64,000 bases of DNA, taken from the IMG/VR virus record IMGVR_UViG_3300045988_093856, positions 1-64,000 of that record; one strand, 5' to 3'. Of this stretch, positions 11,803-28,400 are shown one piece after another (position 1 is the stretch's first letter; every line of letters begins with the position of its first letter). A program made the translations under genes and the position numbers. The stretch comes from a virus. Below the pieces are notes generated by a model, which was not told where the DNA came from, ran no database searches, and saw only the letters and a program-made list of their open reading frames with translations.

Positions 11803-11848
11803 GGCGCTCTCCTTTCCTTCATAATGTCTATTAAGAACCTCTCGGCGC

Positions 11849-12043: not shown

Positions 12044-12128
12044 TTTTGTTGCATCGCCTCGTCTGTTCGTTTTACTGTTTCAAAGTGCGTTGGTGTATAT
12101 CCTCTCTTTGTTTGTCCGACTAAACTTT

Positions 12129-12317
12129 TTAGGCAAAAAGTTTACTCACAGGTACTTCTAAGGCGTTTGCTAAAGATTTAAGTGTCCCAACCAAAGCCTC
12201 ATGTTCTTCGTTATTTTCAAGAGCAATTATCGTCATTCTGCTTACGCCAGACTTCTGGGCCAACTGCTCTTGGGTAAGTTTTTTCTTTTCTCTGAGTTCC
12301 TTGATTCGATACGCCAT
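12129..12317 (-). CDS. cro: Cro-like XRE-family HTH repressor
   Basis: IKELREKKKLTQEQLAQKSGVSRMTIIALE; transcribed divergently from the CI-like gene. Confidence 0.8.
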   Translation of the reverse strand: MAYRIKELREKKKLTQEQLAQKSGVSRMTIIALENNEEHEALVGTLKSLANALEVPVSKLFA

Positions 12318-12366
12318 TACTGCGCCCCCTTTCTATTGTCCGATGTTTGTTTGACTGAACAATTAG

Positions 12367-12395
12367 AGTATAGCCGACTAAACAAGGAATGTCAA
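12367..12395 (-). promoter_or_regulatory. Candidate early (cro-side) sigma70-type promoter
   Basis: On the minus strand: TTGACA (12390-12395), 17 nt spacer, TATACT (12367-12372). Confidence 0.55.
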
Positions 12396-12413
12396 GCGGA
12401 ATTTACAAATAAA

Positions 12414-12442
12414 TTGACTTTTGTGTTTCTACGATGTATAAT
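12414..12442 (+). promoter_or_regulatory. Candidate repressor (cI-side) promoter
   Basis: TTGACT (12414-12419), 17 nt spacer, TATAAT (12437-12442). GACTAAACA-like repeats lie at ~12376 and ~12444. Confidence 0.6.
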
Positions 12443-12471
12443 GGACTAAACATCAAAAGGAGGATTTTTGT

Positions 12472-13134
12472 ATGACATTAGGGCAAATTATCAAAGCATA
12501 TAGAGAAGAAAACAACATGAGTATGGATAGATTTGCAAGAGTGAGTGATTTAAGCAAAGGCTATATATCTCAGTTAGAAAATAACTTAAATCCCAAAACC
12601 GGGGAGCCGCCGAAACCGTCTGTAGAAACTATTCGCAAGGCAGCAAAAGGAATGTTTATGACATTTGACGAGATTATTAGTAATCTGGATGATAATATAA
12701 AGATCGTTGATGACAAACCAGAAGTTAAGATTGTGAAGAAAGCAATCCGCATACCGGTTCTTGGAAATGTCGCTGCCGGAATACCAATCGAAGCTATCGA
12801 GGAAGTAATTGATTATGAAGAAATCTCAGAAGAACTTGCACACACAGGCGATTTCTTCGCCTTAAAAATAAAAGGAGATTCCATGGAACCTCGTATATGT
12901 GATGGGGATGTGGTAATCGTGCGAAAACAGGAGTATGCCGAATCAGGAGATCTTGTTATTGTATTGGTAAATGGAGATAGTGCTACTTGCAAGCAGTTAG
13001 CAAAATATCCGAGTGGTATCAGCCTGATTCCTTTCAACCGGGCATACGAACCGTTCTTCTATTCAAATGAAGAAATTGAGAATAAACCAGTGCGAATCAT
13101 TGGGAGAGTAGTCGAAAATCGGCAGAAATATTAG
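12472..13134 (+). CDS. CI/LexA-like repressor (XRE HTH plus S24 peptidase)
   Basis: N-terminal HTH (MSMDRFARVSDLSKGYISQLE) and C-terminal GDSMEP...VIVRK autopeptidase motifs. Confidence 0.9.
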   Translation: MTLGQIIKAYREENNMSMDRFARVSDLSKGYISQLENNLNPKTGEPPKPSVETIRKAAKGMFMTFDEIISNLDDNIKIVDDKPEVKIVKKAIRIPVLGNVAAGIPIEAIEEVIDYEEISEELAHTGDFFALKIKGDSMEPRICDGDVVIVRKQEYAESGDLVIVLVNGDSATCKQLAKYPSGISLIPFNRAYEPFFYSNEEIENKPVRIIGRVVENRQKY

Positions 13135-13291
13135 AAATAGAAAACCGCCTCTGCTACCAACAGGGACGGTATCTATAAACACATCGGGAAGTCCGATAAT
13201 GTTTGTCTGAACACCCTACATTATATCATCTTCCCGGTAGAAACACAATATACCGGGCATTTTTATGCCCTTTTTTAAGGAGGATGATACT

Positions 13292-14512
13292 ATGCGTCTG
13301 CCGAATGGTTATGGAAGTGTAATCAAACTGAAAGGCAAGAGGCGTAAGCCTTATGCTGTCCGAACTTCTGAAATTGTAGAGTACATAGAAATTGATGCTC
13401 CGAGAGAGTTATCAAATGCTATTCTGTATGATTTCAAACGGTTCAATTTTAGGTGGAAATGGCAATCACAGATATGGTCTGCCGTGTCAACCGATAACGC
13501 AAAAAAATTTGCCGAAAATCTCATGGAATCCGATGGATATGAGTACAGTATCGTTTACAAACAGACATTCAAATATTTGGAGTATTTTGCGAAGCAGGAG
13601 CACGCCTACTCTTATCTGTCTGAATTGAATAACGCGGAGGTTGTCCCGGAACATATCAGATATTCGGAAACGCCGACCTTTGCAGAAATGTATGATAAGT
13701 GGAAACATTATAGAAAGAGTCTGCCGGACAAAATATCAAGCAGCACATGGCGTAACTATGAGATAGCATTTAATCATCTGGCCGATCTGCACCACAAGAA
13801 ATTCAATGCGCTGCGTACCGATGAAGTCCAGGAGTGCATCAATAAGTGGACTTGTAAATCAAATTCTACTGTATCAAATATCCGAACAGTCCTGAATAAT
13901 ATGTACAAATATGCCCTTATGAATAACTATGTTGAAAAGGATTTATCTCAGTTCTTCGTTTATTCGTGGGCGGGACCGGTTGAACAAATCCATAGCCGTT
14001 ATTCTGACGAGGAAATTGCTCTCCTGTGGGCGAATCTCTATGTAATAAACAATGTCGATCTGATACTCATAACAATATATACGGGGCTTCGCCCTACTGA
14101 GCTGCTTGAAATCACAACGGATAACGTTCACATCGAAGAACAGTATATGATAGGAGGTATGAAAACCGAAGCCGGAACGGATAGGATAATTCCGATTGCC
14201 GATAAAATTCTTCCGCTTATCAAGAACAGATATGATCCCAACAAAAGATTTTTAGTAAATAACAAATATGGAAATCATTACACTTACGGTTCTTATGTGA
14301 GTGCGAATTTCAACACGGTAATGAATAGGTTGCAAATGAAACACTTGCCGCATGACGGCCGCCACACGTTTGCTTCTTTAATGGATAACGCCGGGGCAAA
14401 TGAAGTCTGTTTGAAACTTATTATGGGTCACAGCATGAAGAATAATGTTACTAAGGGTGTCTATACGCACAAGACAATACCTCAGCTTATCGAAGAGGTC
14501 AATAAAATTTAG
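13292..14512 (+). CDS. int: Tyrosine integrase
   Basis: C-terminal HDGRHTFASL...LIMGHS...GVYTHK (R..HxxR..H..Y). Start at 13292 follows GGAGGA. Confidence 0.9.
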   Translation: MRLPNGYGSVIKLKGKRRKPYAVRTSEIVEYIEIDAPRELSNAILYDFKRFNFRWKWQSQIWSAVSTDNAKKFAENLMESDGYEYSIVYKQTFKYLEYFAKQEHAYSYLSELNNAEVVPEHIRYSETPTFAEMYDKWKHYRKSLPDKISSSTWRNYEIAFNHLADLHHKKFNALRTDEVQECINKWTCKSNSTVSNIRTVLNNMYKYALMNNYVEKDLSQFFVYSWAGPVEQIHSRYSDEEIALLWANLYVINNVDLILITIYTGLRPTELLEITTDNVHIEEQYMIGGMKTEAGTDRIIPIADKILPLIKNRYDPNKRFLVNNKYGNHYTYGSYVSANFNTVMNRLQMKHLPHDGRHTFASLMDNAGANEVCLKLIMGHSMKNNVTKGVYTHKTIPQLIEEVNKI

Positions 14513-14534
14513 GGGAGAAATCCCCTATTTTTTA
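14512..14534 (+). terminator. Intrinsic terminator after int
   Basis: GGGGAGAAATCCCC hairpin followed by a T-run. Confidence 0.7.
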
Positions 14535-14571
14535 TTGCATAAATATTCGGTAACATCCCCAAAATCCGTGT

Positions 14572-14652
14572 ATATTATGCGTATATTATAAATTTTCAGT
14601 TGTATATTACGTGTATCTTACTTGTATATTGTGTGTATATTACCATCAAAAA
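14572..14652 (+). repeat. Cluster of direct TGTATATTA-like repeats (putative integrase arm sites)
   Basis: The run gtgtatattatgcgtatattata...gttgtatattacgtgtatcttacttgtatattgtgtgtatattacc. One more pair lies at ~14808-14835. Confidence 0.6.
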
Positions 14653-14696
14653 TCTACATAAATCAGCGAACACTAACTCTAAAAATACGCACAATA

Positions 14697-14733
14697 AAAC
14701 CCCGGAAACATAGTATTTCCGGGGTTCGTTTTT
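14697..14733. terminator. Bidirectional hairpin terminator
   Basis: CCCCGGAAA-N7-TTTCCGGGG with an A-run upstream and a T-run downstream. Confidence 0.6.
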
Positions 14734-14869
14734 ATCTCTTAGCACACACCCTGTGCTAACATAGCCGTAGCACAGGTTTCCAGTGTTTATGCGGTTTTCA
14801 AGGTTATTTGTATATTATAGGTATAGTACCATCACATATCAACATAGACCATTATCATCTTTCGCCAAT

Positions 14870-16198
14870 CTATGCTTTTTTCAAATATGCACTCGAACAG
14901 AAACCGGTCATTCCCTTATACGCTACGAGAAGCCACTTGGTTCCGCTCACATCTGTATAATATCCATAGCACTTTACGGTTTCTCCCTTCGGGATTATCG
15001 TAATGGATGTTTTGCTCTTTCCGGCTCCCGCCCGGAGATTCAGATTCGCAGTTGTTTTATAACTGCCCGCCAATGAGGCTGATTTGCTCTTAGCTGCCTC
15101 CACCTTAACAGCCGGGGTGGATGATGTTGACTGAGTTGTGCTGTTGGAAACCTTGGCCCCATTCGACAAAGCAACAACCGTATGCCCCTTGGTTTTTGTT
15201 ACTAAAATATCCCCTCTCTGGAGATAATCAGAGGACTTGCAGTATTGATCCGTTGTCAGAATGTCAAATTTTCCAGTCGCATTAAGCATGGTTTTCTCAT
15301 TTGCGGTCGTAAATGAGGCTACGTTGATTCCGGCATAAAGCACGCAATTTCTTACTGCCTCAGAACAATCGACTTCTACTTTTGTGGTTACTTTGGACGC
15401 ATCATATCCGAAAGGCTTCGCCGCCGTGGTTAAAGAACCTCTATGGCTCTGGCAATAGCCAATATTATCGTTATCACAGATTGCTTGCATATTTTGGGCT
15501 ATTTTTTCTGCGATTGCCTTGTCCTTGGCACGAATTACTATCCACCCTTTTGAATGAAGATACCATGCCTGAGTAGATACTTCGCCTTTGGTCTGATCTC
15601 CCGCTGCCCCTCCGGTGGTTGTCCCTTTCTCGTTTATTCTTGCACTTCCTACGATTACGCTCATAGTATTCCCTCCTTTACTCATAGCAAATTGCTTATA
15701 ATATTCCTCTGCATATCCGCCTCGTTCTTCTTTGGCAGATAAGCCCTGATTATTCGGCTTTTCATAACCGGTCAGCACAATATCTGATGCCTCTCTGGTT
15801 GATTTTGCGGATTTCAGTTTTGAGAGGACTCCTTTATATGCGCCGGAAAGTTCTACCCAAATGAAGTTCAACTGCATTTCTTCATCTCCGATTGATTTCC
15901 CTTGCTGTTTCGCATAATTGAGAAGATTCTGCTTTCTGGTATAGTAGGTCCACTGCGCATATCCATATCCGGCCTTATCAGTCACGAATCCCGGATAGTT
16001 GTTGCCATCGACAAGCCTCGTGTAATCTTCATCCGAAATGTTCAGCTTTTTGTTATAGCTGTTCTGTAAATTGCATGGATTAAATGCACTCTCGGCGCGT
16101 ATGCTTGCCATTATCCCGGCAGTTCCGTATTCCCCTACCCCTTTGCTCATAAAGAAATTCCATGCCCTTTCCTGGGCGGTATTGCCTTTCAAAGCCAT
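14870..16198 (-). CDS. Endolysin (N-terminal phage lysozyme-type domain, second hydrolase-like domain, C-terminal SH3)
   Basis: IMASIRAESAFNP...YGYAQWTY pattern and a C-terminal SH3b-like YKTTANLNLRAGAG...TKWLLVAYKG. Start taken at 16198, 8 nt after GGAGG. Confidence 0.8.
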   Translation of the reverse strand: MALKGNTAQERAWNFFMSKGVGEYGTAGIMASIRAESAFNPCNLQNSYNKKLNISDEDYTRLVDGNNYPGFVTDKAGYGYAQWTYYTRKQNLLNYAKQQGKSIGDEEMQLNFIWVELSGAYKGVLSKLKSAKSTREASDIVLTGYEKPNNQGLSAKEERGGYAEEYYKQFAMSKGGNTMSVIVGSARINEKGTTTGGAAGDQTKGEVSTQAWYLHSKGWIVIRAKDKAIAEKIAQNMQAICDNDNIGYCQSHRGSLTTAAKPFGYDASKVTTKVEVDCSEAVRNCVLYAGINVASFTTANEKTMLNATGKFDILTTDQYCKSSDYLQRGDILVTKTKGHTVVALSNGAKVSNSTTQSTSSTPAVKVEAAKSKSASLAGSYKTTANLNLRAGAGKSKTSITIIPKGETVKCYGYYTDVSGTKWLLVAYKGMTGFCSSAYLKKA

Positions 16199-16215
16199 AT
16201 TCATCGCCTCCTTAC

Positions 16216-16262
16216 AGAAAAAGAGCCGGATGCAATTTAGCACCCGGCTCACTGGCTCTAAC
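16216..16262 (-). terminator. Conserved GAGCC-tandem hairpin, copy 1 (between holin and endolysin)
   Basis: Minus strand: AGTTAGAGCCAGTGAGCCGG-loop-CCGGCTC-TTTTT, immediately upstream of the endolysin RBS. Confidence 0.55.
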
Positions 16263-16273
16263 TCAATATGGGA

Positions 16274-16582
16274 TTATTTGCTATTGTCTTTGATCTGCTT
16301 GATAGCCTGAATTACTTTATCATATCCGTTTGTAGCAACCAAGAAGCTGAGATAAGCAAGTGCGATCAATTCCACGGCGATTCGTGCATTGAGTGCCGTT
16401 TCAGTCCATATCAAATATCCTGCAGATACCGCTATGGAAATGACTACGGAAGTGACCGCCGCCATCACATTTGATGAATAATTTGCTGACTTCTTATCCA
16501 AAATCTTTTTGATGCCCTCAACTGTAAGGTTTGTCAGAACTGAAATTACAAGCAGTGCTACAAATAAAAATTCCATTGACAT
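16274..16582 (-). CDS. Holin (small multi-TM protein)
   Basis: 102 aa with hydrophobic segments and a charged C-terminus; lies directly upstream of the endolysin. Confidence 0.7.
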   Translation of the reverse strand: MSMEFLFVALLVISVLTNLTVEGIKKILDKKSANYSSNVMAAVTSVVISIAVSAGYLIWTETALNARIAVELIALAYLSFLVATNGYDKVIQAIKQIKDNSK

Positions 16583-16593
16583 AGTTTGTCCTC

Positions 16594-17004
16594 CTATCCT
16601 TCTGCTCCATCTTCTGCGGAGCTATGTGTGGTTCCGTCCTTGGTAATGACGGTGCTGTTTAATGGTATCGAAAAACTGAGTTTGTTTTTTTCAAAGATGT
16701 TCATAATCGTATTGGTTCCGAGATATACTACCAACGGAGCTACGATTTCTCTGACGATTGTACTCGACACATCCACTACTGGGTCCATGCCGATACTTGC
16801 AAGGATGTATGAACATGAGGTTAAGATCATGCCGTGGATCAGCACAGCCGTTGTGGCTACTTTTGCGTAAGTGTTGAGGCTCACTTTTTTCTTCTTCTCT
16901 TTTCGCCTCTTATGTTCTCTCACGCGCATCGCATAAATGATAACGCAAGCCGCGATAAATCCAACAACGATTCCAATAATCGCGCTAATTATCATCCTCT
17001 CCAT
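16594..17004 (-). CDS. Membrane protein of the lysis cassette
   Basis: 136 aa; N-terminal TM segment followed by a KRRKEKKKK stretch, then further TM segments. Confidence 0.55.
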   Translation of the reverse strand: MERMIISAIIGIVVGFIAACVIIYAMRVREHKRRKEKKKKVSLNTYAKVATTAVLIHGMILTSCSYILASIGMDPVVDVSSTIVREIVAPLVVYLGTNTIMNIFEKNKLSFSIPLNSTVITKDGTTHSSAEDGAEG

Positions 17005-17329
17005 TCCTTTCCCCTTTCTTCTTTGGTGGTTCGGTAGGCAATTTCTTCAAATCCTCAATCAAATCTGTTGCTACATCATTGCCGCCTAACGTATGGTATG
17101 GTTCATACATTCGTATAGCGTTCTCACGGGCGTATATAGGGCAATATCCTTTCTCAGACCATTTATTGTATGTCTGGACGATTCCGTTTCTCAGAAGGGC
17201 TTCTACGCCCTTTCCAATGGCCTTGTTTTTAAGATACTGGCTGTAAAGAATTTTGCCAATTACCCCCATGCCGCTGATTATCAATCCAAAAAGAAATTCA
17301 ATCCAATATTTCAGTATAAATTCAACCAT
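16985..17329 (-). CDS. Holin-like membrane protein
   Basis: N-terminal TM segment, then ALLRNGIVQTYNKW..KGYCPIYA...YHTLGGND, a pattern recurrent in Firmicutes phage holin annotations. Confidence 0.5.
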   Translation of the reverse strand: MVEFILKYWIEFLFGLIISGMGVIGKILYSQYLKNKAIGKGVEALLRNGIVQTYNKWSEKGYCPIYARENAIRMYEPYHTLGGNDVATDLIEDLKKLPTEPPKKKGERNGEDDN

Positions 17330-17342
17330 CTCTCTATGCTCC

Positions 17343-17534
17343 TTACCTGAATTTACGCAGTCTGTATTCTATTACATCCAACCTTTCATCTGCGTCCGTT
17401 CTCATTTTTTCTAAGTCGTTTTTTACTTCAACGCTAATGTCGGATTGCGCAATGGCTTCTGCCTGCTTCCTGACGATTTCAGATAGGAGAGTTGTCACTT
17501 CACACAATCTGTCAATAATTTCATATTGTCCCAT
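17343..17534 (-). CDS. Hypothetical protein (63 aa)
   Basis: ORF with same-strand packing. Confidence 0.45.
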   Translation of the reverse strand: MGQYEIIDRLCEVTTLLSEIVRKQAEAIAQSDISVEVKNDLEKMRTDADERLDVIEYRLRKFR

Positions 17535-17621
17535 GCGCCACTTCTCCCTCTTTATTTAGTTCACATATCTTCGACAGCATAAACTATACTGGCAAAGATA
17601 TGTGAGCTAAGTGTTATTGGA

Positions 17622-17756
17622 CTATTCCAAAACGTTTCCGTTCTCGTCCAGACCTAATGCTGCCAATTCAGCTATTACAGCATCGCGGTATCTTGCCGGA
17701 ACTTTGTCGATTGTTCTCCGTCCCGCAATAATCAAAGCACAATATAAATCTACCAT
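17622..17756 (-). CDS. Small CD1375-like phage protein (44 aa)
   Basis: MVDLYCALIIAGRRTIDKVPARYRDAVIAEL, after AAAGGAGGA. Confidence 0.6.
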   Translation of the reverse strand: MVDLYCALIIAGRRTIDKVPARYRDAVIAELAALGLDENGNVLE

Positions 17757-17806
17757 AGTCTCATTTCCTCCTTTTGTTATAAGAATCCATAAAATATTTA
17801 ACATTA

Positions 17807-17908
17807 TCATGCCTCCAGTGCTTTTTCCACTGCTTCTCTGTACTTTTCCGGTACATCTTCGATCGTTTTTCTCCCCGCTTTGATAAGGGTTACATACAAA
17901 TCTACCAT
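17807..17908 (-). CDS. Second CD1375-like paralogue (33 aa; not in the ORF track)
   Basis: MVDLYVTLIKAGRKTIEDVPEKYREAVEKALEA*. Its stop overlaps the next start (ATGA). Confidence 0.5.
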   Translation of the reverse strand: MVDLYVTLIKAGRKTIEDVPEKYREAVEKALEA

Positions 17909-17924
17909 CTTCCTACCTCCCTTC

Positions 17925-18284
17925 TCACTGCATACTCTCATACAGATCGGCAATCGCTTCCATGATAACTAACTGGTTTTCCTGGAGGGCCATCTGTTGT
18001 TCAAACGTATCTGCAATCGCTTCCATGAGCACCAGATTGTTTTCCACTAACTCTTTCTGCGAAAGACTTCCGCACGCAGCGAGTTCTTTCTGGTATTCTG
18101 CGTATTCTGCCAGTGTGAGTTTCGCTTCTTCATACTTCCATACGAGAACCGTCTGATCCCCGGACTCTTTTTCGATCTGCGTGATATTTCTACGAAGATA
18201 AACCACGCAAGGACTTGATTTTGCGTCAACTTCATCCGGCTTTTTTGCCTGTGTCCCTTCTACTGCAATCCACTTTATTTCCAT
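17925..18284 (-). CDS. XkdW-like tail-fibre-associated protein
   Basis: 119 aa with an internal repeat (NNLVLMEAIADTFE / NQLVIMEAIADLYE); position is downstream of the fibre genes. Confidence 0.4.
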   Translation of the reverse strand: MEIKWIAVEGTQAKKPDEVDAKSSPCVVYLRRNITQIEKESGDQTVLVWKYEEAKLTLAEYAEYQKELAACGSLSQKELVENNLVLMEAIADTFEQQMALQENQLVIMEAIADLYESMQ

Positions 18285-19554
18285 CCTTGTTCAACCTCCT
18301 TTGGTTTTTGCTTACTACCTTTTTCAACTTCTTGACTTCGACAATCGGCTTTATCCGATCTTCATACATTCCGTAAGTATCAGTATGGTATATCCATCCC
18401 ATAGATGATAAGAGAGAAGCGGCATCTTTCGGATTGATTTTGTCTTGCTTTGAAATCTGCCTTGCCTTTTTATTCAGTCTGAGCATAATGCTCTCCCTCA
18501 TAATCGTTTTGTTCCTATGGAACTCGAACCCCATATAATCGAGGGGTCTGCCGTGTATCGTGGTAACAACTTTTATTTCTGCATGATACTTATTAACAAC
18601 ATCTTCAAATGCCTTAGCCTTTGTCTTTACAGAAGCCACCTTAACGAAGATTTTTCTATGGCCTTTGTGGACTTTTGACTTATACCTAATTCTTAACTTT
18701 TCCAAATCTTTCCCTAGGTTCTCTAATTCATTCAGGTGTACGCATTGGATGGCGTACTCTTCTACTTCATATTCAAACCTGAATACCTGCCAATTCCCTT
18801 TGAGTTTAAGATGCAGCTCTGTTTCGAGGTAACTGCTGATTGCTTCTCTGACTTTATGCAATTCTTTCTTATTGCGACCGAAACATACTATATCGTCCAT
18901 GTATCGAGTCATGTACTCAATGTGTAGGACTTCCTTTATGTAATGGTCTAAAGGTTGTAAAAGGAAATTCGCAAACCATTGTGAGGTATAGAAACCAAGA
19001 GGCAGCCCCATTTCTATCGCATCAATTATTAAAAACAATAGCTCCAGAATATATTCGTCTCTGAATTTTTTCGTCAGCCATGCTTTCAAAATATCGTGAT
19101 CTACCGATTCAAAGAAATGGCGTATATCCATTTTCAAAACGTACTTTGTTGCGGTGGGGTCTGTGCGAATCCACTTTGTTATCCGCTTCGCTCCCATGTG
19201 CTGTCCTCTGCCGGGAATTGAACCGAGAACGTAATCATACATTCCTGATTCTATGCCGGGTCTGATTGCTTGAACAACAACGTGGTGGACCACTTGCTCA
19301 TATTTGAAATTGGGTTTTACTATTGTACGTTCTTTAAGATAATTCCTCTCGTTTATTTTGACTGATGGATGCTTGCTCGGCTTGAACTCTCCGTTATACA
19401 ACATCTCTTGGACTTTCTTTATCTCGTCCTCCAGATTATCAAGCACTTTCTTCACATCCGCCCTGTTTCTCTTTCCTTTCGATGGTTTCAGGAAGGACCG
19501 TTCAATGCTATCGTGGGATAGCATATCTTCTTGATTGACACGAAAACTTTTCAT
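18232..19554 (-). CDS. DGR reverse transcriptase
   Basis: LPLGFYTSQ ([ILV]GxxxSQ, DGR-type motif 4) and YMDD (motif 5); lies directly downstream of the TR. Confidence 0.9.
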   Translation of the reverse strand: MKSFRVNQEDMLSHDSIERSFLKPSKGKRNRADVKKVLDNLEDEIKKVQEMLYNGEFKPSKHPSVKINERNYLKERTIVKPNFKYEQVVHHVVVQAIRPGIESGMYDYVLGSIPGRGQHMGAKRITKWIRTDPTATKYVLKMDIRHFFESVDHDILKAWLTKKFRDEYILELLFLIIDAIEMGLPLGFYTSQWFANFLLQPLDHYIKEVLHIEYMTRYMDDIVCFGRNKKELHKVREAISSYLETELHLKLKGNWQVFRFEYEVEEYAIQCVHLNELENLGKDLEKLRIRYKSKVHKGHRKIFVKVASVKTKAKAFEDVVNKYHAEIKVVTTIHGRPLDYMGFEFHRNKTIMRESIMLRLNKKARQISKQDKINPKDAASLLSSMGWIYHTDTYGMYEDRIKPIVEVKKLKKVVSKNQRRLNKDGNKVDCSRRDTGKKAG

Positions 19555-19704
19555 ATCTTTCTTATTGCCTCACGGTTTCTGGGCGGTGACCGCTTACTGA
19601 ACCGTGCCTTTACCGGCGTAATTTCCACTGGTTAGCATTATTTCAAATGCCTGCGGTGTAGGAAAATGGTGTCCTTGGTTAATCTTCCAATTTTATAAGA
19701 ATTA

Positions 19705-19807
19705 GGCAGCCCCGATGTTCCAGTTGGAATTGGACACAAGATTGTTCAGATTCACGCACGAACCGCCGCAAAGGAAACCATTGTTGCAGTTGCCGCCGAC
19801 AATCGCA
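19705..19807 (-). repeat. DGR template repeat (TR)
   Basis: 103 bp aligned by hand to 19930-20032. There are 13 mismatches, every one at a TR T on the plus strand (A on the coding strand). Confidence 0.9.
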
Positions 19808-19869
19808 CGAAGCAAGGCACAGGGCGGACACCAAATCCCCTAAAATTTTCTATATTCGTCTAAGTATGG

Positions 19870-19908
19870 CGGGGGAAATCCCCCGGACCCCCTATGCGGC
19901 TATGCCGC
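19870..19908 (-). promoter_or_regulatory. Two GC hairpins just 3' of the VR (candidate DGR target-recognition element)
   Basis: GCGGC-ATA-GCCGC (19896-19908, spanning the stop codon) and CGGGGG-ATTT-CCCCCG (19870-19885). Confidence 0.45.
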
Positions 19909-21471
19909 TAAAGGCTGTTCACAAGAAAGGGCAGCCCCGATGGCCCAGGAGGAATAGGACACAAGATTGGCCAGAGACACGCACGAACCGCCGCAAAGGA
20001 AACCAGCGTCGCAGTGGCCGCCGACAATCGCATAATCTACTTGGCTGGCATTATACCAACCGCCATCGCAAGTGTAGGTGGTCTGGCTTCCCGACATTGT
20101 TACCGGTAATCTTCCCTGATCCGTCATTTTGGTAACAGAGCAATAACCTCCGCTTGTTCCTCCCATAGTCACTCCGGTATCTGTGTAACCATCTCCGGTC
20201 GTGTTGTACTCAGGAGTCATTTTGGTTTTAATCTTTCCGCCAACATACATCAGGCCGGCAATTCTTTCCCAAGCGTTACCCCACCAGTTCTCAATGTGGA
20301 ATACCTTAACACCTACGCCAGTTCCGTTTGTTCCGTAGAATCTTCCTTTGTCTGATAACGTACCGGTTTTAAGCAGATTGGATGCCTGAGAACCGCCTGT
20401 GTAATGTCCGTTTCCGTAGGTTGTCTGGAAATCGTCTGAGCATCCCATGAGAATCAAAAGCATATTGATAAGGTTTCTCTGGGACCAGCTTCTTGTGTAC
20501 CAGAGACTTCCGTTTGCCTTTGCGTAGGTAATCTCATTCGTACCTGTCTGGGTGTTCATGGTGGTTTGTCCCTTAATTGAACGAACTTTATTGCTTATAA
20601 GGGAGCCGTCAAAGCAAGAAAGCCAAATGTAATCCATAATACTTCCATCGGCACGTGTATGAGCATACGCATTGAATGTCTCGTCTAACTGGATGTTGCA
20701 AACCTGACAATATTCGTAGTTTTCATCTTCCCACTGCTTAATCCACACTCTTGGAATTTTTGAGCACGCATTTCCCTCAAATGAAGTATTACTTACATCG
20801 GAGGCTGTGCCGTCTAATTTCTTTGTGTAATCGTCAGGATCGAGCTTGTACTTTTCTTCTCCGTCATAGCCAACCATCGCCGGATAGTTGTCCTGGAGGA
20901 AGAAAACATCATCAGGATTCCAACTACCATAATCAAACTTGCCTGTCGAATAGTCCATGTGCGCCGGGGTAAATCCTTCTGCCATATCTGTGTAATGGAC
21001 TCTGGTTGCCGGGTTGCTATCGTTTTTGTCGATCTTAAATCCGTATAAGATATATGCTTTAGGGGTAGTGGACTTCGCATTTGCAATATTGCAGTTATAT
21101 ACTCCGTGATCCGAATAAATGAAAAACCTGTAAAAATACTCCGTGTCGTTCTCTAATCCAGAATCGACATAAGGGGTTTTTGCGTATTTCCCAAGTTCCT
21201 CATTTACTAAGACCACTGTTCCGTCCTTTATGTTCTCCGGCATGGCCCCTTGTTTCCTCACAACCGCTACGCCCTTAACCGTGCATACCAACTGATCGTC
21301 TATGACGGTATCATCGGGTTCTGTGAATGTGATCTTTGCGCATCCATCGCCCGGCTGAATTGTAAGGCTCTTTAAGTTTGATGGCGGGATTCCTGTGTGC
21401 GAATCTCCCATGGATTCTATTCCAGAAAGTACCTCGTCAACAATGTATGTTGCCTGTGCATAATCACTCAT
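19900..21471 (-). CDS. Distal tail fibre / receptor-binding protein; DGR target with a C-terminal variable (C-type-lectin/FGE-like) region
   Basis: 523 aa. It is the last structural gene before the RT, and the VR encodes ..GGHCDAGFLCGGSCVSLANLVSYSSWAIGAALSC. Confidence 0.85.
   Translation of the reverse strand: MSDYAQATYIVDEVLSGIESMGDSHTGIPPSNLKSLTIQPGDGCAKITFTEPDDTVIDDQLVCTVKGVAVVRKQGAMPENIKDGTVVLVNEELGKYAKTPYVDSGLENDTEYFYRFFIYSDHGVYNCNIANAKSTTPKAYILYGFKIDKNDSNPATRVHYTDMAEGFTPAHMDYSTGKFDYGSWNPDDVFFLQDNYPAMVGYDGEEKYKLDPDDYTKKLDGTASDVSNTSFEGNACSKIPRVWIKQWEDENYEYCQVCNIQLDETFNAYAHTRADGSIMDYIWLSCFDGSLISNKVRSIKGQTTMNTQTGTNEITYAKANGSLWYTRSWSQRNLINMLLILMGCSDDFQTTYGNGHYTGGSQASNLLKTGTLSDKGRFYGTNGTGVGVKVFHIENWWGNAWERIAGLMYVGGKIKTKMTPEYNTTGDGYTDTGVTMGGTSGGYCSVTKMTDQGRLPVTMSGSQTTYTCDGGWYNASQVDYAIVGGHCDAGFLCGGSCVSLANLVSYSSWAIGAALSCEQPLAA
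19930..20032 (-). repeat. DGR variable repeat (VR) in the 3' end of the fibre gene
   Basis: See the TR entry. All 13 variable positions fall on codon positions 1 or 2 of the 19900-21471 frame. The shared 3' end ATCGGGGCTGCC is the putative IMH. Confidence 0.9.
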
Positions 21472-21559
21472 TAAGTAAATACCTCCTTTTTCTTTGCAGT
21501 CTTAATTGCCATTTCTTTACCTCCTGTTCGGATTAACGTTTTATGATTAAGCATTGCGC

Positions 21560-22342
21560 CTAAGCACCGGTATTACTATCGTCTGAGTAAGTGTACGCTG
21601 CCAATCCAGAGACTTCGTACTTTTCTACTATCCGTTTGTTTTCTGTCTCTGTTGCCGGAATGATAGTTGTTGTCTTGATATACTTGGACGAATCGGCTTT
21701 GACTGTGACTGTCTGAGTAATCGTTTTATTTCCAGATTCATCGTAACCGTTTACTGTGGTAATCACAGCTTCATCGCTTTCCTGAACAATGCTTTTATCC
21801 GGCAGAAACTCCGTGGTCTGATTAACAAGTCCCATGTAATGACGAAACTCTTTCTCTGCCAGGCTTTCAATCTGCAACTGCAGGCTTCCGGCAGCATCCT
21901 TTGAAAGCTGATCTTTCATCATTGCAAACCACTGTGAAAACAGCGCTTCTTGCATTTTCTCGAAATCATCCAAATCTGCTCCGTAATCGGTTTTGATCTG
22001 GCTGATAACCTTATCTGCTTCTTCTTCCAGTGTCGCAACATAATCTTCGAGACCACTCAATGTACTGTCTGCGTTCTTCTCGAACTCAGTCTTTTGTGTA
22101 TCGAAGAATTGAGTAAATACTTCGTACAAATCTGTACCCTGTTCCAATGCTGCTAAGATGGCATTGACAGCAGTATTGATTTTATTTGCATCCTTCGCTC
22201 CAAAAAACGCTTCTTCGTACACGGAGTATGTCGTTACATCTCTCAGCGAGATTGTGCCGTCTGAGTTCTTGATCTCAGTGTACTTTTTAAGCCCGTCCCA
22301 GACCGCATCCTTATAATCTGTTCTCAGTAATTCCCATGCCAT
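21560..22342 (-). CDS. Tail fibre/baseplate-associated structural protein
   Basis: 260-aa ORF in the tail-tip cluster. Confidence 0.55.
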   Translation of the reverse strand: MAWELLRTDYKDAVWDGLKKYTEIKNSDGTISLRDVTTYSVYEEAFFGAKDANKINTAVNAILAALEQGTDLYEVFTQFFDTQKTEFEKNADSTLSGLEDYVATLEEEADKVISQIKTDYGADLDDFEKMQEALFSQWFAMMKDQLSKDAAGSLQLQIESLAEKEFRHYMGLVNQTTEFLPDKSIVQESDEAVITTVNGYDESGNKTITQTVTVKADSSKYIKTTTIIPATETENKRIVEKYEVSGLAAYTYSDDSNTGA

Positions 22343-22344
22343 AA

Positions 22345-22785
22345 TTAAATACCTCCATTCGTCCCAAGTAGAAACTGAAACATTCTGCGCCCATCATATT
22401 GGTTAATGAGCTTGTTGTATAAGCTCAATGTTGCACTTTCGATTCTGTTGAGTTCGGTATAATCGAATATCTTTCCTTGTGGCGAATAGGTTCTCGGATC
22501 GCCAAAATCAATTCCCACGGTATTCTGTGAGATAATTTCCAGATTGTTTTCTATCGCGTTGATTTCATCTGCATACGGATATTCGCTTTTCCCTTTGTCT
22601 TGGCCCATGTCTGATATTGCAAAGTCCGGGTAAATGGTCTGGGCTATATGGTGCAAATAATTGAGATTATTCTTAATTCGGTTATAATCTTCCGAATTAA
22701 AGCGATCCCCAAAATACACGCCATTTCCATCCGTATAGCCGTACCAATCTATTTTAGGTTCAATCCATGTGTATGTTTCACTCAT
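22345..22785 (-). CDS. Tail-tip-associated protein (146 aa)
   Basis: ORF with tight packing. Confidence 0.55.
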   Translation of the reverse strand: MSETYTWIEPKIDWYGYTDGNGVYFGDRFNSEDYNRIKNNLNYLHHIAQTIYPDFAISDMGQDKGKSEYPYADEINAIENNLEIISQNTVGIDFGDPRTYSPQGKIFDYTELNRIESATLSLYNKLINQYDGRRMFQFLLGTNGGI

Positions 22786-22796
22786 TCCGCCACCTC

Positions 22797-25037
22797 CTAT
22801 CGCTTATCGGGGCGCGTCTCTATGGATCGGCGCGCTACAACTTTGCCGGATAATGATTGCGCAAACTTTATTGTGTGCCTATAAATGTTGACTTTAAGAC
22901 CAGGGCGATAAGGATTTTCCTGATATACAATGTCGTTTGCATCTATCTCTGGATTTCCTCTTGTCGGGTATTCATATTCGATTTCCGCATCATAGTAATC
23001 TCCGAGCCAATTTGCCAAATCCTGTGCTACTTCCATATCGCTTATTAAAGGATTCTGCCATGGTATTGTCTTGCCTCGATTATTGAGTACCCTTGTGGCT
23101 GTCTGCTGCACGATGTTATATCTGTTTCCAAGAATTTCAATCTGCCCTTTGCCGGACGCTTTGAAACGTATTTCCACATAGTAAGCTCCAGAGGACAGGA
23201 TTTCTACATTCGATGCCGAATCAAGGAACTTCGCAGAGTAGTTGTAAACAGCTTCTCCCATGTAATAAACCGCAGTCTGTCCCGCCGTGACCTCTATATC
23301 ATCACTTACCAATGTTTCTGTTGTGGCAGAGGCATTGTAACTGTAGCAGGCAACATCAATCCTCTTGACAAGCTCCTGTTTTATGGCTTTCGGAGATGCG
23401 GTCATATCCAATCTTTCCATTGTGAAATCTGCAATATCTCCGAACGTAAAATAGTTCACGATGATTCTGTTGAATGGATTGGCAGTCTTTGTAAACTCTA
23501 TCTCCATTACATCGAAATCATCGAACTGCTCATGGATAATCGTACTGTCTGTGATTTTATCTGCGGTAACGACCATGTTCTGTACAGGGGCTCCGTTATT
23601 GTATGTTCGCACCAGAAATTCTCCGGGCAGTGCCGATCCGAAATCTATCCTGAAACCGTAATATGTGCATACGGACTCTTGCGTGATAGTAATGATCGGA
23701 TTTGTTTCAAACGTGCAATCTTCCGCGGACTGACACTCAGAAACATAACCGGTGTACAAATCTGCTTCTGATAGATTTTTCGGAAGAAAATAATGGTGCT
23801 GATCCACTCTGGTATAGTCCTGTGAATATGCGGCGTATTCGTCTTTTTCCACAGGGCTTTTGATGTTCCCTATGTTGGAATACTCTGCCTCTCCATTACA
23901 CCCAACCGTTATCTCGGGTAAGAAAGATGATTTTATCTGAGGTATTCCATCTCTATTCTGACTGAAAACACATCTTCCGGCATTTGCGATAATCTGCAAT
24001 GCTTCTTTGTGCTTTACTCTCGGAAGTGGGTTCTTTGTTATAATCTTTTTGAGGTATGGATCAATGTAATATGACTCAACACCGGCATCTATGAATACCA
24101 GCTCTGCAAGATCGTAGAGACTTATGCCCTCTGGTCTATATACGCCCTTATAGTATTCTCCGTCCATTGTGCCGAGCATATCTTCGCATCTTATCGTTGC
24201 TGAATAATCATCGCTTTCCCATGCGCTACATAGCAACTTTCCACCTTTAACCCACTCGATCTCCCCTGATGATGGCAGTTGATAACCATAGAAAATCTCC
24301 ATTTCCTGTCCGGTTTCAAGGAAGTTGATCGCCGACTTCGGATTATCAACATTGAAATACTGATTGTAGTTCTGCAACTTCACATAGAAATCAATCTGAG
24401 AAACATTTTCAGAGATTGGGGATATGTAGGTCTCTAAAGAGGAATCCAGAATATCCTTGTTGTCATATACAAGACCGAATCCCATCTGTATGGAATAAAT
24501 TCTGAGCCTCGTATAGTCGTTTTTCATTTTATAAAACACAAACTTTATGAATGTGGTATTTTCAAGGACTTCCTGGGTGTTCCATTCTCCGGTATCGTTC
24601 CCCCGGATTTCAAAAAGCTGTCCGCTTTCGGTTATGACATCGAAATCTACCGGGTATATTTCTCCGAAATCCACGGATATTCCTTTTATGTCAGTGGCCG
24701 ATATATTCAGATTGATTAAAAGCGTATAACCTTCTTCCCCAACAAGCGGGTTTCCGATAAGTCCGGTTTCGTAATATGCGTAATTCTGTGTCGGGCGCGG
24801 CAGAAAATACATGGACCCGTCCACTTTAGTAAAATCCTGTTCAAAGGTTGCATATATGATCTCGTCTGTGCTTTTGCCGAAAATGTTTTTACTTGAATAG
24901 TAAGTGAAATCGTCCCCGGCTACCTTTGCGTTTGCCTGCGCCTCCTGATTTACCAGACCGAATGAAACCATCATGTATGAGCGTTCGCGCAACAGATTTT
25001 TCATGCTTTTTTTGTATTCATTTGAAACATTTTGCAT
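22797..25037 (-). CDS. Tail-tip / Tal-like minor structural protein
   Basis: 746 aa, two genes after the tape measure, which is the typical siphovirus Tal position. Confidence 0.65.
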   Translation of the reverse strand: MQNVSNEYKKSMKNLLRERSYMMVSFGLVNQEAQANAKVAGDDFTYYSSKNIFGKSTDEIIYATFEQDFTKVDGSMYFLPRPTQNYAYYETGLIGNPLVGEEGYTLLINLNISATDIKGISVDFGEIYPVDFDVITESGQLFEIRGNDTGEWNTQEVLENTTFIKFVFYKMKNDYTRLRIYSIQMGFGLVYDNKDILDSSLETYISPISENVSQIDFYVKLQNYNQYFNVDNPKSAINFLETGQEMEIFYGYQLPSSGEIEWVKGGKLLCSAWESDDYSATIRCEDMLGTMDGEYYKGVYRPEGISLYDLAELVFIDAGVESYYIDPYLKKIITKNPLPRVKHKEALQIIANAGRCVFSQNRDGIPQIKSSFLPEITVGCNGEAEYSNIGNIKSPVEKDEYAAYSQDYTRVDQHHYFLPKNLSEADLYTGYVSECQSAEDCTFETNPIITITQESVCTYYGFRIDFGSALPGEFLVRTYNNGAPVQNMVVTADKITDSTIIHEQFDDFDVMEIEFTKTANPFNRIIVNYFTFGDIADFTMERLDMTASPKAIKQELVKRIDVACYSYNASATTETLVSDDIEVTAGQTAVYYMGEAVYNYSAKFLDSASNVEILSSGAYYVEIRFKASGKGQIEILGNRYNIVQQTATRVLNNRGKTIPWQNPLISDMEVAQDLANWLGDYYDAEIEYEYPTRGNPEIDANDIVYQENPYRPGLKVNIYRHTIKFAQSLSGKVVARRSIETRPDKR

Positions 25038-25428: not shown

Positions 25429-28400
25429 TTACGTTGGCTGGAAGCGGAAGCCATTGCGTTCCGCCTGTTTTGTTACTGTATCTGTGATTGTTCTTCCGCC
25501 TATTTCAATTACAGTCTGTTCCTTCTTATCTGCCTGAACCTTTGTATTTCTTGAAATATCAGTTACGCCAGATGTAATTCCAAGCTCATTCAGTGCTTCT
25601 TTTATTGCTTCTTTCAAACCGCCGCCAGAAGTGAGCGTTGCCTGAACCGCGCCATTTGTTGATACCTCTCTTGTTACACGCTGTACAATGGCTTCATTTG
25701 TGAAATCACTGCCGTAGTTGGTCTGATAGTCTTTCAATGCACTGTCGTTGATTCTTAACCGTGTTCCAACGCTCATATCGGTAAAGGAATCGGCCCACGT
25801 TGCCATTGTGGCTTTGGTTTTCTTCCCTTCCGCTTCGATTCCGGCATTATATCCCTCAACAGAATACGCGCCCATCTGCCTGAACACTTTAGACGGAGAA
25901 TTTATATCCAGCTTATCTTTGAACCATGAGATAATACTGCTGCCCCATGATTCGATGTTGTTTTTACAAGTGGTATATAATGCTCCAATACCATTCTTAA
26001 ATCCACTGATAACATCTGATGCAATGTCATAGAATTTGCTGTATGAACAAGTATCAGTAAACCACGACTTAACACTGGAAGCCCATGTTGTAATGCTGCT
26101 CTTTGTGGTCGTGTAAGAATTTGTAATCTTTGTCTTAAATCCACTGAGTACATTGCTTGCATATGTGGTCCATGTAGTCGAATTTATTCCGCCGTGGGAT
26201 GAACCACTGAACCACTCTTTGAGATTGCTGGCCCACGTTGTAATGCTGCTCTTTGTGGTCGTGTATGCGTTTCCAATCTTGTCCTTAAAACCAGAAATAA
26301 CATTGGAAGCATAGGTAGACCATGTGGTTCCATTCACTCCACCAAAGGACGAACTATTGAACCATTCCTTAACACTGGAAGCCCATGTTGTTATGTTTCC
26401 CTTAACAGTGGTGTATGTGTTTCCGATTTTGTCCTTAAAACTTGCGATAATATCACTGCCATATTTCTCCCATGTGGATTTGCAGATTCCTCCAAAACTT
26501 ACTCCGCTAAACCACTCCTTAATATTTCCGGCCCATTCAGTGATCTTATTCTTGCACTCGGTAAACTTCTCTGATATTCCTCCGGTAAGCCCGGCTACAA
26601 TGTTTTGGCCGATTTCCGCAAATACCGTTGATGGAGAATGGATTCCGAATAACTGCTTAACAATAGTTGTTACCATGTTGAAACAGTCAAGGGCGGTTTT
26701 CAAAGGAGCAGGCAGACAAGCGCTTGCAATTCCGTTAAGCAATCCGCCTACGATATTCTCTCCAATGGTATTGATCTCTCCATCATCGTTACCGGAATTG
26801 AATACGCCGGATATTCCCTCTACAATACTGGTCTTTAACTGGTTGAATATGGTAGACCAAGACACCAGTTTGAACATATTCTTAAAAGTCCACTTTGCGG
26901 CAAATACCTTGAATACAGTAGCCAGAAGTGTGTCCCAATCTACCTCCGACATTGCCTGTGCGACTCCGCCCAAAAGACTGTACCAGTCCACTTCATCGAT
27001 CAGAGTATTTATCAAGGTGCATACGCCTGTTATAAGTGAGTTAATCGTGCCGCCAGCTTCTTTCCAGTCGATTGTTTTGACCGCAGTATTGATTGCCGAG
27101 GCAATGTCATTACCTATCTTCTCAAAGTCGATCTCTGCGAGGAATGTTCCAATGCCGCTGAATAAAGTATTTATACAATTACCAATGGTTCTTCCTACTG
27201 TTTTCCAATCTATCTGAGTAATTGCCAAATTCAGATTGGAACCTAAACCTTTGGCAAATGATGTGACTCCATTCTTAATAGTGGTCCAATCAAGATTTCC
27301 AAGGGCTGAGTTGATACCCATTGCGACTTTAAGTGCGAGTTCGGTCCAAGGGAATGTTTCTGCAAATGCGTATAACGCCTGGAATGCTCCGTTTATGCCC
27401 GTGCTGAGTGTATAGCCAATTCCAACCCAACTAATACCTGTGAGTGCATTTCCTATTCCGGTCGCAACCGCTGTCCCAAATGCTGTAAAGTCGAAGTTTG
27501 TAACGAACTCTTGCGCACCCCATATTACTGAGTTGATGGCATTTGCAAATGAAGTTCCTACTAATCCCCAAGTTTCTGTGTCCTGGAACATTGTGCTTAG
27601 GAAATCAGCTATTCCCTTGCCAATTCCTCTGAGCGTTTCATAGATTAAAGGCCAATCGAGTGTTTCCAATGCGCCTTTGATTGCGTCTGTAACAGCTATT
27701 CCGAGACTGTCCCAATGGAAATTTTCTACAAAGGAATCAACAAACTCAAAAGCCGAATTGATGCCCTCGGCGATCGTCTTTCCTATGACTGTAAACAGCC
27801 CGGGAGTTTCGAGGAATCCATTGAGAAATGTTGCAATACTCTTTGCTATCTTGCGGAGTGTCCTCTTTATGCCGGCCCATGGAATGTTTTCAAGGGCTTC
27901 TTTGAGCTTTTCGCCTAACAATCGCCCTATATCGTAGAAATCTCCATCTTCCCACGCTTCCTTAATCATGTCGGCGATATTTTTGTATTTTTCGGCAATG
28001 GGGTTTTCTTCAAATCCGCTGCCGTCAATATCGTTTGCTCCGCTTCCTCCCCCACTTCCTTCATCGAGAATGTTTAACTCGTCTATTCCAGTTGTGAGGT
28101 TCTTTGCTGCTTTTGCTGCGCCATTTAATGATTCTGCATAATCCTTGTTCTGTTTTATTGCCTTGGTGTAAAAACTTTTACCGGTCAGCGCAGAAAAGAA
28201 CTGTGCTAAAGCATTTGTGGCGGTAATGAGTTTCTGAATGAGGTAGTCCAGAATAGGAGTAACCACATTTAGGATAGGTTCAAATGCGGTTGCCAATGAA
28301 CTTCCTAATTGCCGAATGTCGTTATAAAGCAAATTGACATTTTTATGGAACTCTGAACCTATCTTCTTTGAGAAAATAACGAGGTTGTTAAATCCGTTCT

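Follow-up and report, generated by a model that had tools for sequence, protein, structure and literature searches.

Side by side on the minus strand of the 64-kb stretch of viral DNA analysed here (the window) lie a tail-protein gene, a pair of imperfect repeats and a reverse transcriptase (RT) gene (Table 1), which raises the question of whether they form a diversity-generating retroelement (DGR) that diversifies the tail protein. The evidence set out below makes it very probable that they do, and that the cassette is a functional, Avd-less DGR (target with variable repeat, then template repeat, then RT). The phage that carries it would be temperate, with a siphovirus-like tail and a host among gut or rumen Clostridia; its nearest cultured relatives infect Butyrivibrio. 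An earlier note on this DNA had described the same order of elements on one strand, correctly, and had proposed that adenine mutagenic retrohoming acts on the C-terminal part of a distal tail or receptor-binding protein, a core reading now supported by the identity of the RT, the predicted fold of the target, the variable repeats of related phages and the mismatches counted across related loci.

Table 1. Features of the cassette, in the order of the minus strand (positions in the window).
Feature	Position	Strand	Description
Target gene, 523-aa tail (receptor-binding) protein	19900..21471	-	ORF; PHROG 5302 'tail protein', E 1e-83; receptor binding suggested
Variable repeat (VR)	19930..20032	-	aa 481-514 of target; 11 diversifiable codons; 103 nt, 13 A-only mismatches to TR
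IMH-like VR 3' boundary	19913..19941	-	ATCGGGGCTGCC common with TR (19930-19941), then VR-specific CTTTCTTGTGAACAGCC (19913-19929); from TR/VR flank alignment
Small hairpin GCGGC-ATA-GCCGC	19896..19908	-	Spans target stop codon; from sequence and fold; similar hairpin in relatives
GC-rich hairpin CGGGGG-ATTT-CCCCCG	19870..19885	-	Begins 45 nt past VR; candidate target-recognition hairpin or cruciform
Conserved motif TTTTAGGGGATTTGGTG	19829..19845	-	~22 nt upstream of TR; found by eye in VR-to-TR intergenic region of window and 8 relatives
Template repeat (TR)	19705..19807	-	20 adenines; 9 AAY + 2 ATY codons; VR reading frame
Rfam RT-4 (RF03025) match	19560..19660	-	TR-RT spacer; 71.0 bits, E 1.6e-11, full-length
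DGR-type reverse transcriptase, 440 aa	18232..19554	-	Pfam RVT_1; PHROG 1423, E 9e-95

A repeat finder returned one 103-nt direct repeat with 87% identity between its two copies, the TR and the VR. On the minus (coding) strand these copies differ at 13 positions, each with an A in the TR, such that 13 of the 20 TR adenines are changed in the VR and none of the non-adenine positions is; were 13 mismatches placed at random over the 103 positions, all of them would fall on the 20 adenines with a probability of 7e-12 (hypergeometric). Every mismatch (13/13) occupies codon position 1 or 2 of the target ORF, as does every adenine of the TR (20/20). The earlier note had reported this repeat length, mismatch count, adenine specificity and codon placement, with every number correct, and had held that non-adenine mismatches in a proper alignment would speak against its reading; the window contains none. 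The 11 adenine-containing codons set a diversity ceiling of 1.1e12 DNA and 6e11 protein variants, and stop codons are impossible among these variants, since the nine AAY codons can only become NNY and the two ATY codons NTY. When written with N at each adenine, the TR pattern matches at just two places in the 64 kb, where chance would give 0; these are the TR and the VR, and the window therefore holds a single VR. Scans for other VR variants with this pattern gave 0 matches in IMG/VR, JGI metagenomes and GTDB genomes; the variants described below came by way of the target protein cluster, not from exact-pattern scans. An 89-aa, very basic antisense ORF (19866-20135, plus strand) that overlaps the VR was not considered a gene, because diversification of the VR would scramble its own sequence.

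The RT has an intact ORF with both motifs of the DGR clade, [ILV]GxxxSQ in motif 4 and YxDD, and the GxxxSQ and YMDD that the earlier note had ascribed to it were located in LGFYTSQ (aa 186-192; GFYTSQ, aa 187-192) and at aa 218-221, respectively. The best sequence match in the PDB is bRT, the RT of the BPP-1 DGR (8ub7, E 3.5e-20, compared to 6.6e-12 for the best group II intron RT), and the best Foldseek match of the AF2 model (pLDDT 89.5) is likewise 8ub7_A, with a TM of 0.87. These matches bear on the alternative that the repeats merely arose when the 3' end of the tail-fibre gene was duplicated or underwent gene conversion, and that the neighbouring RT serves another system, such as a retron, group II intron or defence RT. 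NCBIfam models of group II intron RT, Drt3a and retron RT do match the protein, but below threshold and far under their cut-offs (88.7 bits against 300 for the group II RT/maturase model, 60 against 235 for the retron model), and an Rfam E-value scan of 17000-22000 returned RT-4 and RT-18 only, with neither a group II intron RNA nor a retron RNA. Given also that the adenine-only pattern is so improbable by chance and recurs in 42 loci, and that changes in the TR are copied into the VR (see below), we attach almost no probability to this alternative and treat the cassette as a DGR.

Next, we consider what the cassette diversifies. In the AF2 model (pLDDT 91.8), the target starts with a helix, continues with an FN3-like domain and a beta-rich middle domain, and ends in a C-type-lectin-like domain, which bears the VR. 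Its best Foldseek match in the PDB is TaqVP from Thermus aquaticus (5VF4, E 2e-12, about 390 aligned columns); further matches include Mtd (1YU0, E 2e-3) and FN3 domains. A CLec/FGE-like fold had been expected at the C-terminus, and the model indeed comes closest to the DGR variable proteins TaqVP and Mtd, which belong to the C-type lectin family; the VR thus appears, in the model, on a C-type-lectin fold. TaqVP is also the only PDB sequence match of the target (E 0.002), yet the two share only 15% identity with a TM of about 0.36-0.48, and TaqVP, which comes from a bacterium and not from a phage, has no counterpart of the FN3 or tail-attachment part at the N-terminus of the target. Searches with Pfam and NCBIfam gave no domain for the target. 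Its structural matches in BFVD are gut-phage proteins named 'tail collar fiber protein'.

A receptor-binding role of the target is suggested by its fold, by the name of its family and by the position of its gene. A real DGR might also act on a protein with another task, for example in virion decoration or associated with lysis, and bring about no host-range switching, a reading to which a target without Pfam or NCBIfam domain, whose function is deduced from position and fold, lends some room. However, the target comes last in the tail module (tape measure, Dit-like protein, 746-aa tail protein, two small ORFs, target) and is followed by small post-fibre ORFs and the lysis genes, it matches a PHROG 'tail protein' and its BFVD neighbours are tail collar fibre proteins, and homologues of the target in loci that lack an RT hold the tail-fibre position beside Sipho_Gp37-type baseplate genes. 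We consider a role other than receptor binding highly unlikely. The tail to which the putative receptor-binding protein belongs is siphovirus-like, as judged from a tape measure of 1458 aa, a 140-aa major tail (tube) protein that matches PHROG 158 and the lambda-like TTP family of Pfam, and the lack of a sheath-sized ORF between the head genes and the tape measure; the genes that follow the tape measure are of Dit/Tal type. The 'PBSX-like tail genes' of the earlier note, which stand for a contractile, myovirus-type tail, are therefore not borne out.

An invariant VR in phage populations would have contradicted the proposed retrohoming, but the VRs of near-identical phages from other samples do vary, and do so only at adenine-templated codons. 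Among 12 proteins 89-98% identical to the target, variation is almost confined to the 11 adenine-containing TR codons (hypervariable columns 482, 486, 488, 489, 499, 501, 502, 506, 508, 510 and 511), where the mean column entropy is 2.32 bits, compared to 0.06 at the remaining VR positions and 0.07 over residues 1-480. At the DNA level, three close relatives differ from the window by 14.6-17.5% in the VR and by 2-4% in the flanks, and by 0% in the TR. The TR is 100% identical in three of the four close relatives, and the fourth (L014) carries five non-adenine TR substitutions, all five of which recur in the VR of the same phage. The TR/VR mismatches pooled from 42 related loci number 508, and 496 of them lie at TR adenines. 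One non-adenine mismatch, shared by the close relatives L011 and L012 (CAT in the VR versus CTT in the TR), implies either that not all VR positions are refreshed in each event or that the TR mutated recently. Taken together, these comparisons among near-identical phages argue for directional transfer from TR to VR and for ongoing diversification.

The copy in the window could still be a fossil that diversified in the past and no longer homes, for instance because an accessory factor or a promoter is missing, its VR being frozen: no Avd was detected, this exact phage is represented by one assembled sequence, and some relatives do have non-adenine mismatches. Its RT ORF is intact with all catalytic motifs, however, its TR is the same as in relatives whose VRs each differ, it has accumulated no non-adenine TR/VR mismatch, and the same pattern extends across the whole Avd-less lineage. 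A frozen cassette thus has only a slim chance of being the correct reading, and we favour an active DGR. With no non-adenine mismatches in the window, and with natural populations in which the TR is fixed and the VR scrambled at the predicted codons, the cassette offers a very clean example of its kind.

How the VR would be told apart from the TR is suggested by the sequences at their 3' ends. The earlier note took the identical GC-rich end as the putative IMH. This shared end, ATCGGGGCTGCC, is indeed present in both copies, but its 12 nt alone cannot act as a directional IMH because they are the same in TR and VR, and the discriminating part is to be sought in the following ~17-30 nt. Here the 3' flanks of VR and TR diverge from each other while each is conserved in relatives, the VR-specific flank even in those with 55-72% RT identity. 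Further downstream, 39 of 42 family loci have a GC-rich hairpin equivalent to the G5/C5 hairpin of the window, located within ~110 nt past the VR (mostly 18-50 nt) and with compensatory variants in the stem, compared to essentially no match in 50 shuffles per locus. A GC-rich hairpin after the VR has also been described for BPP-1 (PMC5758913). The conserved motif upstream of the TR may mark where the TR-containing RNA starts, or form its 5' part; a promoter and terminator consensus scan of 19400-21700 revealed nothing above shuffle expectation.

No Pfam or NCBIfam match to Avd or HRDC was obtained for the neighbours of the cassette or for any of the 46 window ORFs scanned. Avd is poorly conserved, so this negative is not absolute and a divergent Avd is possible. 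An avd (or HRDC) accessory gene accompanies about 74% of DGRs and is thus not universal; to our knowledge, Avd is essential in the sole DGR that has been dissected biochemically. The DGR was called 'complete' in the earlier note, a term that holds in the sense of a known Avd-less architecture, but not in the sense of an accompanying Avd or HRDC gene. Because no Avd was found, we assign the cassette to 'architecture A' (target-TR-RT), which makes up 29% of 372 catalogued DGRs, in a survey in which C-terminal RT extensions reached ~20% (Wu et al., 2018; PMC5758913). With its TR-RT core, upstream adjacent target and no accessory gene, it resembles Architecture A1 in the same study (PMC5758913) and, judged by this likeness in architecture, may belong to Lineage 3.

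The spacer between TR and RT matches the Rfam motif RT-4 with a score 2.5 bits under the gathering threshold of 73.5. An RT-4 match occurs at the homologous place in all nine IMG/VR relatives, in five of them above the gathering score (74.4-77.6 bits), and an analogous motif, RT-10, sits between TR and RT in BPP-1 (PMC5737381). We dropped the idea that ACACC, with which RT-4 begins, pairs over a long range with a conserved GGUGU that precedes the TR, because the CAC pairs inside the motif in the RT-4 consensus. The RT itself carries a lineage-specific alpha/beta insertion at ~aa 262-335 (window positions 18550-18771), delimited against the RT of Butyrivibrio phage Arawn; the idea that it substitutes for Avd is weakened, because Arawn, which is without the insertion, is also without Avd. 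The analysis links two orphan Rfam motifs, RT-4 and RT-18, to the spacer between TR and RT in an Avd-less lineage of DGRs, which extends the proposal made for RT-10 in BPP-1. We tentatively suggest, while leaning slightly against it, that this lineage retrohomes without any Avd-like partner, by means of the RT and the RT-4/RT-18 spacer RNA, and that the sublineage of the window added the alpha/beta insertion domain to its RT. If true, this would assign a function to two orphan Rfam motifs and provide a cultivable model for an uncharacterised, Avd-independent DGR mechanism, since Butyrivibrio phages Arawn and Idris have the same cassette; with these isolates, Avd-independent retrohoming could become experimentally tractable.

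A plausible sequence of events would begin with transcription of an RNA over the TR and the downstream RT-4-type structured spacer. The 440-aa RT would then copy the TR into cDNA, with misincorporation opposite template adenines, as its homology to bRT and the adenine-only mismatches suggest, and the cDNA would take the place of the VR, where the tail-protein gene has its 3' end, presumably directed there by the GC-rich end common to both repeats, by the VR-specific flank and by the downstream G5/C5 hairpin. The resulting randomisation of 11 codons on the C-type-lectin-like domain would change receptor specificity.

Comparison with the BPP-1 DGR (mtd-avd-TR-brt) places the cassette among familiar systems. 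In both, the TR-to-VR mismatches are adenine-specific, the VR forms the 3' part of a gene for a tail receptor-binding protein of C-type-lectin fold (as predicted for the window), a shared GC-rich 3' end is followed by a GC-rich hairpin, a structured RNA (likewise predicted for the window) lies in the spacer between TR and RT, and the RTs are of the same clade (8ub7 being the best match by sequence and fold). Unlike BPP-1, the window has no avd gene detected, its spacer resembles Rfam RT-4 instead of RT-10, its RT is 112 aa longer with the alpha/beta domain inserted, its 523-aa target includes FN3 and an extra beta domain and has a CLec domain nearer to TaqVP than to Mtd, and the host of the phage is a member of the Gram-positive Clostridia. 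The cassette recurs in phage Arawn, in 9 contigs of IMG/VR and at about 50 genome loci; the 42 loci counted above are among these. Megablast of 17800-22400 against GenBank phages gave no match. As a DGR, the cassette belongs unremarkably to a large known family in phages of gut and rumen Clostridia. Thousands of phage DGRs have already been catalogued in gut and rumen viromes, so that one more well-formed example changes little.

The closest cultured counterparts are the Butyrivibrio phages Arawn, Idris and Closwp03 (MN882550, MN882554 and PQ069210), in which the gene order is as in the window, the target is also 523 aa long and the VR/TR pair shows 8 adenine-only mismatches. Their RT is 50% identical to that of the window over aa 1-262 and 40% over the full-length alignment. 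Arawn differs in that its RT has 381 aa and is without the insertion of roughly 66 aa, and in its 31-kb genome; the annotation calls its RT no more than 'putative reverse transcriptase', and the term 'diversity-generating' never occurs in the paper that describes the phage. In all three phages, as in the window, the RT gene shares its 3' end with an overlapping small acidic ORF. In the window this ORF encodes 119 aa (17925-18284), and it adjoins the RT in all nine relatives as well as in Arawn. We rejected it as a new DGR accessory: its homologues stand directly after RT-less target homologues in other phages (L020-L022, L062, L063 and L081), and the ORF therefore travels with the tail-protein gene and not with the RT.

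The 17000-23000 interval contains one outstanding direct repeat, a pair of 103-nt copies with 87% identity that correspond to the template repeat (TR) and the variable repeat (VR) of the diversity-generating retroelement (DGR; see table). Aligned on the minus strand, the copies have 13 mismatches, each with A in the TR (the downstream copy) and C, G or T in the VR (the upstream copy), such that 13 of the 20 TR adenines and none of the non-adenine positions are changed (P = 7e-12 for 13 random mismatches all falling on 20 adenines among 103 positions). All 13 occupy codon position 1 or 2 of the target tail-protein ORF. Read in the VR frame, the TR (AIVGGNCNNGFLCGGSCVNLNNLVSNSNWNIGAA) contains nine AAY and two ATY codons, which sets a repertoire ceiling of 4^20 = 1.1e12 DNA variants or 15^9 x 4^2 = 6e11 protein variants and makes stop codons impossible. 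A search of the window with the TR pattern allowing N at each adenine gave no hits beyond the two copies. Every number that an earlier note had read from the sequence alone, including the repeat coordinates, mismatch counts and codon positions, was correct on recomputation, as were the reverse transcriptase (RT) motifs.

Coordinates of the cassette and of other features in the window
Feature	Position	Strand	Remarks
S24 repressor gene	12472-13134	+	after the early genes
Integrase gene	13265-14512	+	followed by endolysin and holin-like genes
Inverted repeat	17556-17610		26-nt arms, 85% complementary; 3-nt loop
Acidic ORF	17925-18284	-	119 aa; pI 4.4; 53-nt overlap with RT 3' end; PHROG 20201
RT ORF	18232-19554	-	440 aa; LGFYTSQ and YMDD present
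RT-4 match	19560-19660	-	TR-RT spacer
TR	19705-19807	-	
GC-rich hairpin	19870-19885	-	CGGGGG-ATTT-CCCCCG; begins 45 nt past VR
Target ORF	19900-21471	-	523 aa
VR	19930-20032	-	
Tape measure gene	25429-29805		tail module, upstream of target
FtsK/SpoIIIE-family ATPase gene	61854-63104	+	far right; strand opposite to cassette

Twelve distinct proteins, recovered from different samples and sharing 89-98% identity with the target, make up its 90%-identity cluster; in them, 11 of the 15 most variable columns (residues 482, 486, 488, 489, 499, 501, 502, 506, 508, 510 and 511) are exactly the adenine-containing codons of the TR. Mean entropy is 2.32 bits at these columns, compared to 0.06 in the other VR columns and 0.07 in residues 1-480. 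At the DNA level, four close relatives differ from the window by 2-4% in flanking genes and by 14.6-17.5% in the VR, and in three of the four the TR shows 0/103 differences. The fourth, L014, carries five non-adenine substitutions in its TR, all five of which recur in its own VR, the signature of TR-to-VR copying. The pair of loci L011 and L012, whose TR is identical to that of the window, shows one TR/VR mismatch that is not at an adenine of the TR (VR CAT, TR CTT; aligned to window position 19988); the retention of CAT in the TR of the more distant L014 suggests either a recent A-to-T mutation of the TR or a partial, 5'-incomplete replacement of the VR. Across 42 family loci, 496 of 508 TR/VR mismatches lie at TR adenines. 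The earlier note had named an invariant VR and non-adenine mismatches as evidence against adenine-templated diversification; in public data, used as an approximation, VRs vary among near-identical phages and do so at adenine codons. Sequence comparison shows DGR activity in the lineage, and the window's own copy is presumably active as well.

The RT matches Pfam RVT_1 and PHROG 1423 (E 9e-95). Among solved structures, the DGR RT of Bordetella phage BPP-1 is its nearest match in sequence (8ub7, E 3.5e-20), with group II intron RTs following at 6.6e-12; scores against the NCBIfam RT models of group II introns, retrons and Drt are far under their cut-offs. An AlphaFold model built from 90 homologues (pLDDT 89.5) is closest to 8ub7_A (TM 0.87 on target, rmsd 3.2 A). 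Relative to the RT of Butyrivibrio phage Arawn, the window RT contains an insertion of ~66 aa (about aa 262-335) at the palm-thumb junction, modelled as a small alpha/beta domain; C-terminal extensions occur in ~20% of DGR RTs (PMC5758913). The accessory genes Avd and HRDC had no match among the cassette neighbours or any of the 46 window ORFs scanned, and the layout of the cassette is that of the known accessory-less 'architecture A', which makes up 29% of 372 DGRs (PMC5758913). The insertion alone does not explain how the reaction proceeds without Avd, because Arawn lacks both.

In BPP-1 the space separating TR and RT is occupied by RT-10, and other RT motifs have been speculated to serve other DGRs (PMC5737381; motif-defining paper), an idea that the window locus fits. 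The match to the Rfam motif RT-4 (RF03025) is full-length in the window and scores 71.0 bits (E 1.6e-11), 2.5 bits short of the gathering threshold; it recurs at the same place in 9/9 IMG/VR relatives, above threshold in five, and more distant family members carry RT-4 or the overlapping RT-18 motif in this spacer; in L025, L038, L039, L040, L052, L055, L058 and L074 it is RT-18, not RT-4, that exceeds its gathering score. Judged from these positions, RT-4 and RT-18, both orphan motifs, seem to be spacer RNAs in the DGRs of this Avd-less family, and their assignment is a small addition to what is known. The VR and TR share the 3' end ATCGGGGCTGCC, beyond which their flanks diverge; among relatives the following flank is conserved within the VR class and likewise within the TR class, which is how IMH and IMH* would be expected to behave. 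The target stop codon lies within a small hairpin, and an equivalent of the GC-rich hairpin, with G5/C5 arms and compensatory variants, is present in 39/42 family loci, while shuffles essentially never match. For the BPP-1 target, a GC-rich inverted repeat has been described 3' of the IMH (PMC5758913). Canonical mutagenic retrohoming is most likely: the RT would reverse transcribe a TR-spacer RNA with misincorporation opposite adenines, and the cDNA would replace the VR, guided by the common GC-rich end, the VR-specific flank and the hairpin.

The target, in which no Pfam or NCBIfam domain was found, matches PHROG 5302 'tail protein'. A confident structure model made from 120 homologues (pLDDT 91.8) resembles DGR variable proteins, with TaqVP of Thermus aquaticus as the best PDB match (E 2e-12) and Mtd of BPP-1 also matching; the N-terminal part matches FN3 domains. 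Its neighbours among viral models come from gut phages, crAss-like ones included, and are named 'tail collar fiber proteins'. The target is the final gene of the tail module, following the tape measure gene and ORFs of 136, 746, 146 and 260 aa. Because the tail tube protein is of lambda type (140 aa) and the module contains no sheath-sized ORF, the tail is siphovirus-like, and the earlier description of its genes as 'PBSX-like' is unsupported.

Between the cassette and the lysis genes lie a few small ORFs, including the acidic 119-aa ORF; the inverted repeat among them may be a terminator or regulatory hairpin. In the 119-aa ORF the N-terminal ~65 aa form a conserved domain, and a 45-nt stretch is directly repeated (17938-17982 / 18001-18045); every relative, and Arawn too, has a homologue adjoining the RT. 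In phages without the RT, its homologue directly follows the target homologue, an arrangement from which we infer that the ORF belongs with the tail-protein gene, and therefore the TR and RT seem to have been inserted between them. In two loci (L018, 3844-4455; L019, 2455-3066) an unknown 203-aa ORF takes the place of the RT ahead of the 119-aa ORF homologue, and the target homologue aligns right through the VR region; this may represent a replaced or lost DGR.

Earlier work has described DGRs that diversify phage tail proteins, architectures lacking Avd and Clostridia prophages rich in DGRs (PMC5758913; PMC6199706; PMC11792537; PMC8008677). The same cassette is present in nine IMG/VR contigs (RT 55-72% identical), in Arawn and in ~50 of 71 genome loci bearing a target homologue, most of them from Lachnospiraceae, Oscillospiraceae and other gut or rumen Clostridia. 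GenBank phages yielded no nucleotide-level match, and identity to the closest RT from a cultured phage is 50% over aa 1-262. Arawn (MN882550.2), a cultured rumen phage, encodes the homologous cassette at 3054-6423, with a 523-aa target, a 381-aa RT, an unannotated ORF resembling the 119-aa ORF that overlaps the RT 3' end, and a VR (4492-4596) and TR (4734-4838) with eight mismatches, all at adenines. Its record is annotated with 'putative reverse transcriptase' only, and the paper describing Arawn and Idris (PMC7372960) never uses the term 'diversity-generating'; recognition of these cultured Butyrivibrio phages as bearers of the cassette is a further small addition. In some family members, from Eubacteriales, Melainabacteria and Clostridia MAGs, two or three tandem TR-like copies occupy the target-to-RT gap in place of one (L042, 4431-5064; L044, 4419-4927; L073, 759-1212; L039, 4408-4989).

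The left 12 kb of the window holds phage early genes (C5 methylase, replisome organiser, PDDEXK DUF3799, AAA_23, two HNH endonucleases, RusA-like and SLT domain). With repressor, integrase and lysis genes following them (positions 1-17330), the window therefore resembles a circularly permuted phage map more than a prophage flanked by host DNA on that side. The FtsK/SpoIIIE-family ATPase gene may mark the phage end or a second mobile element.
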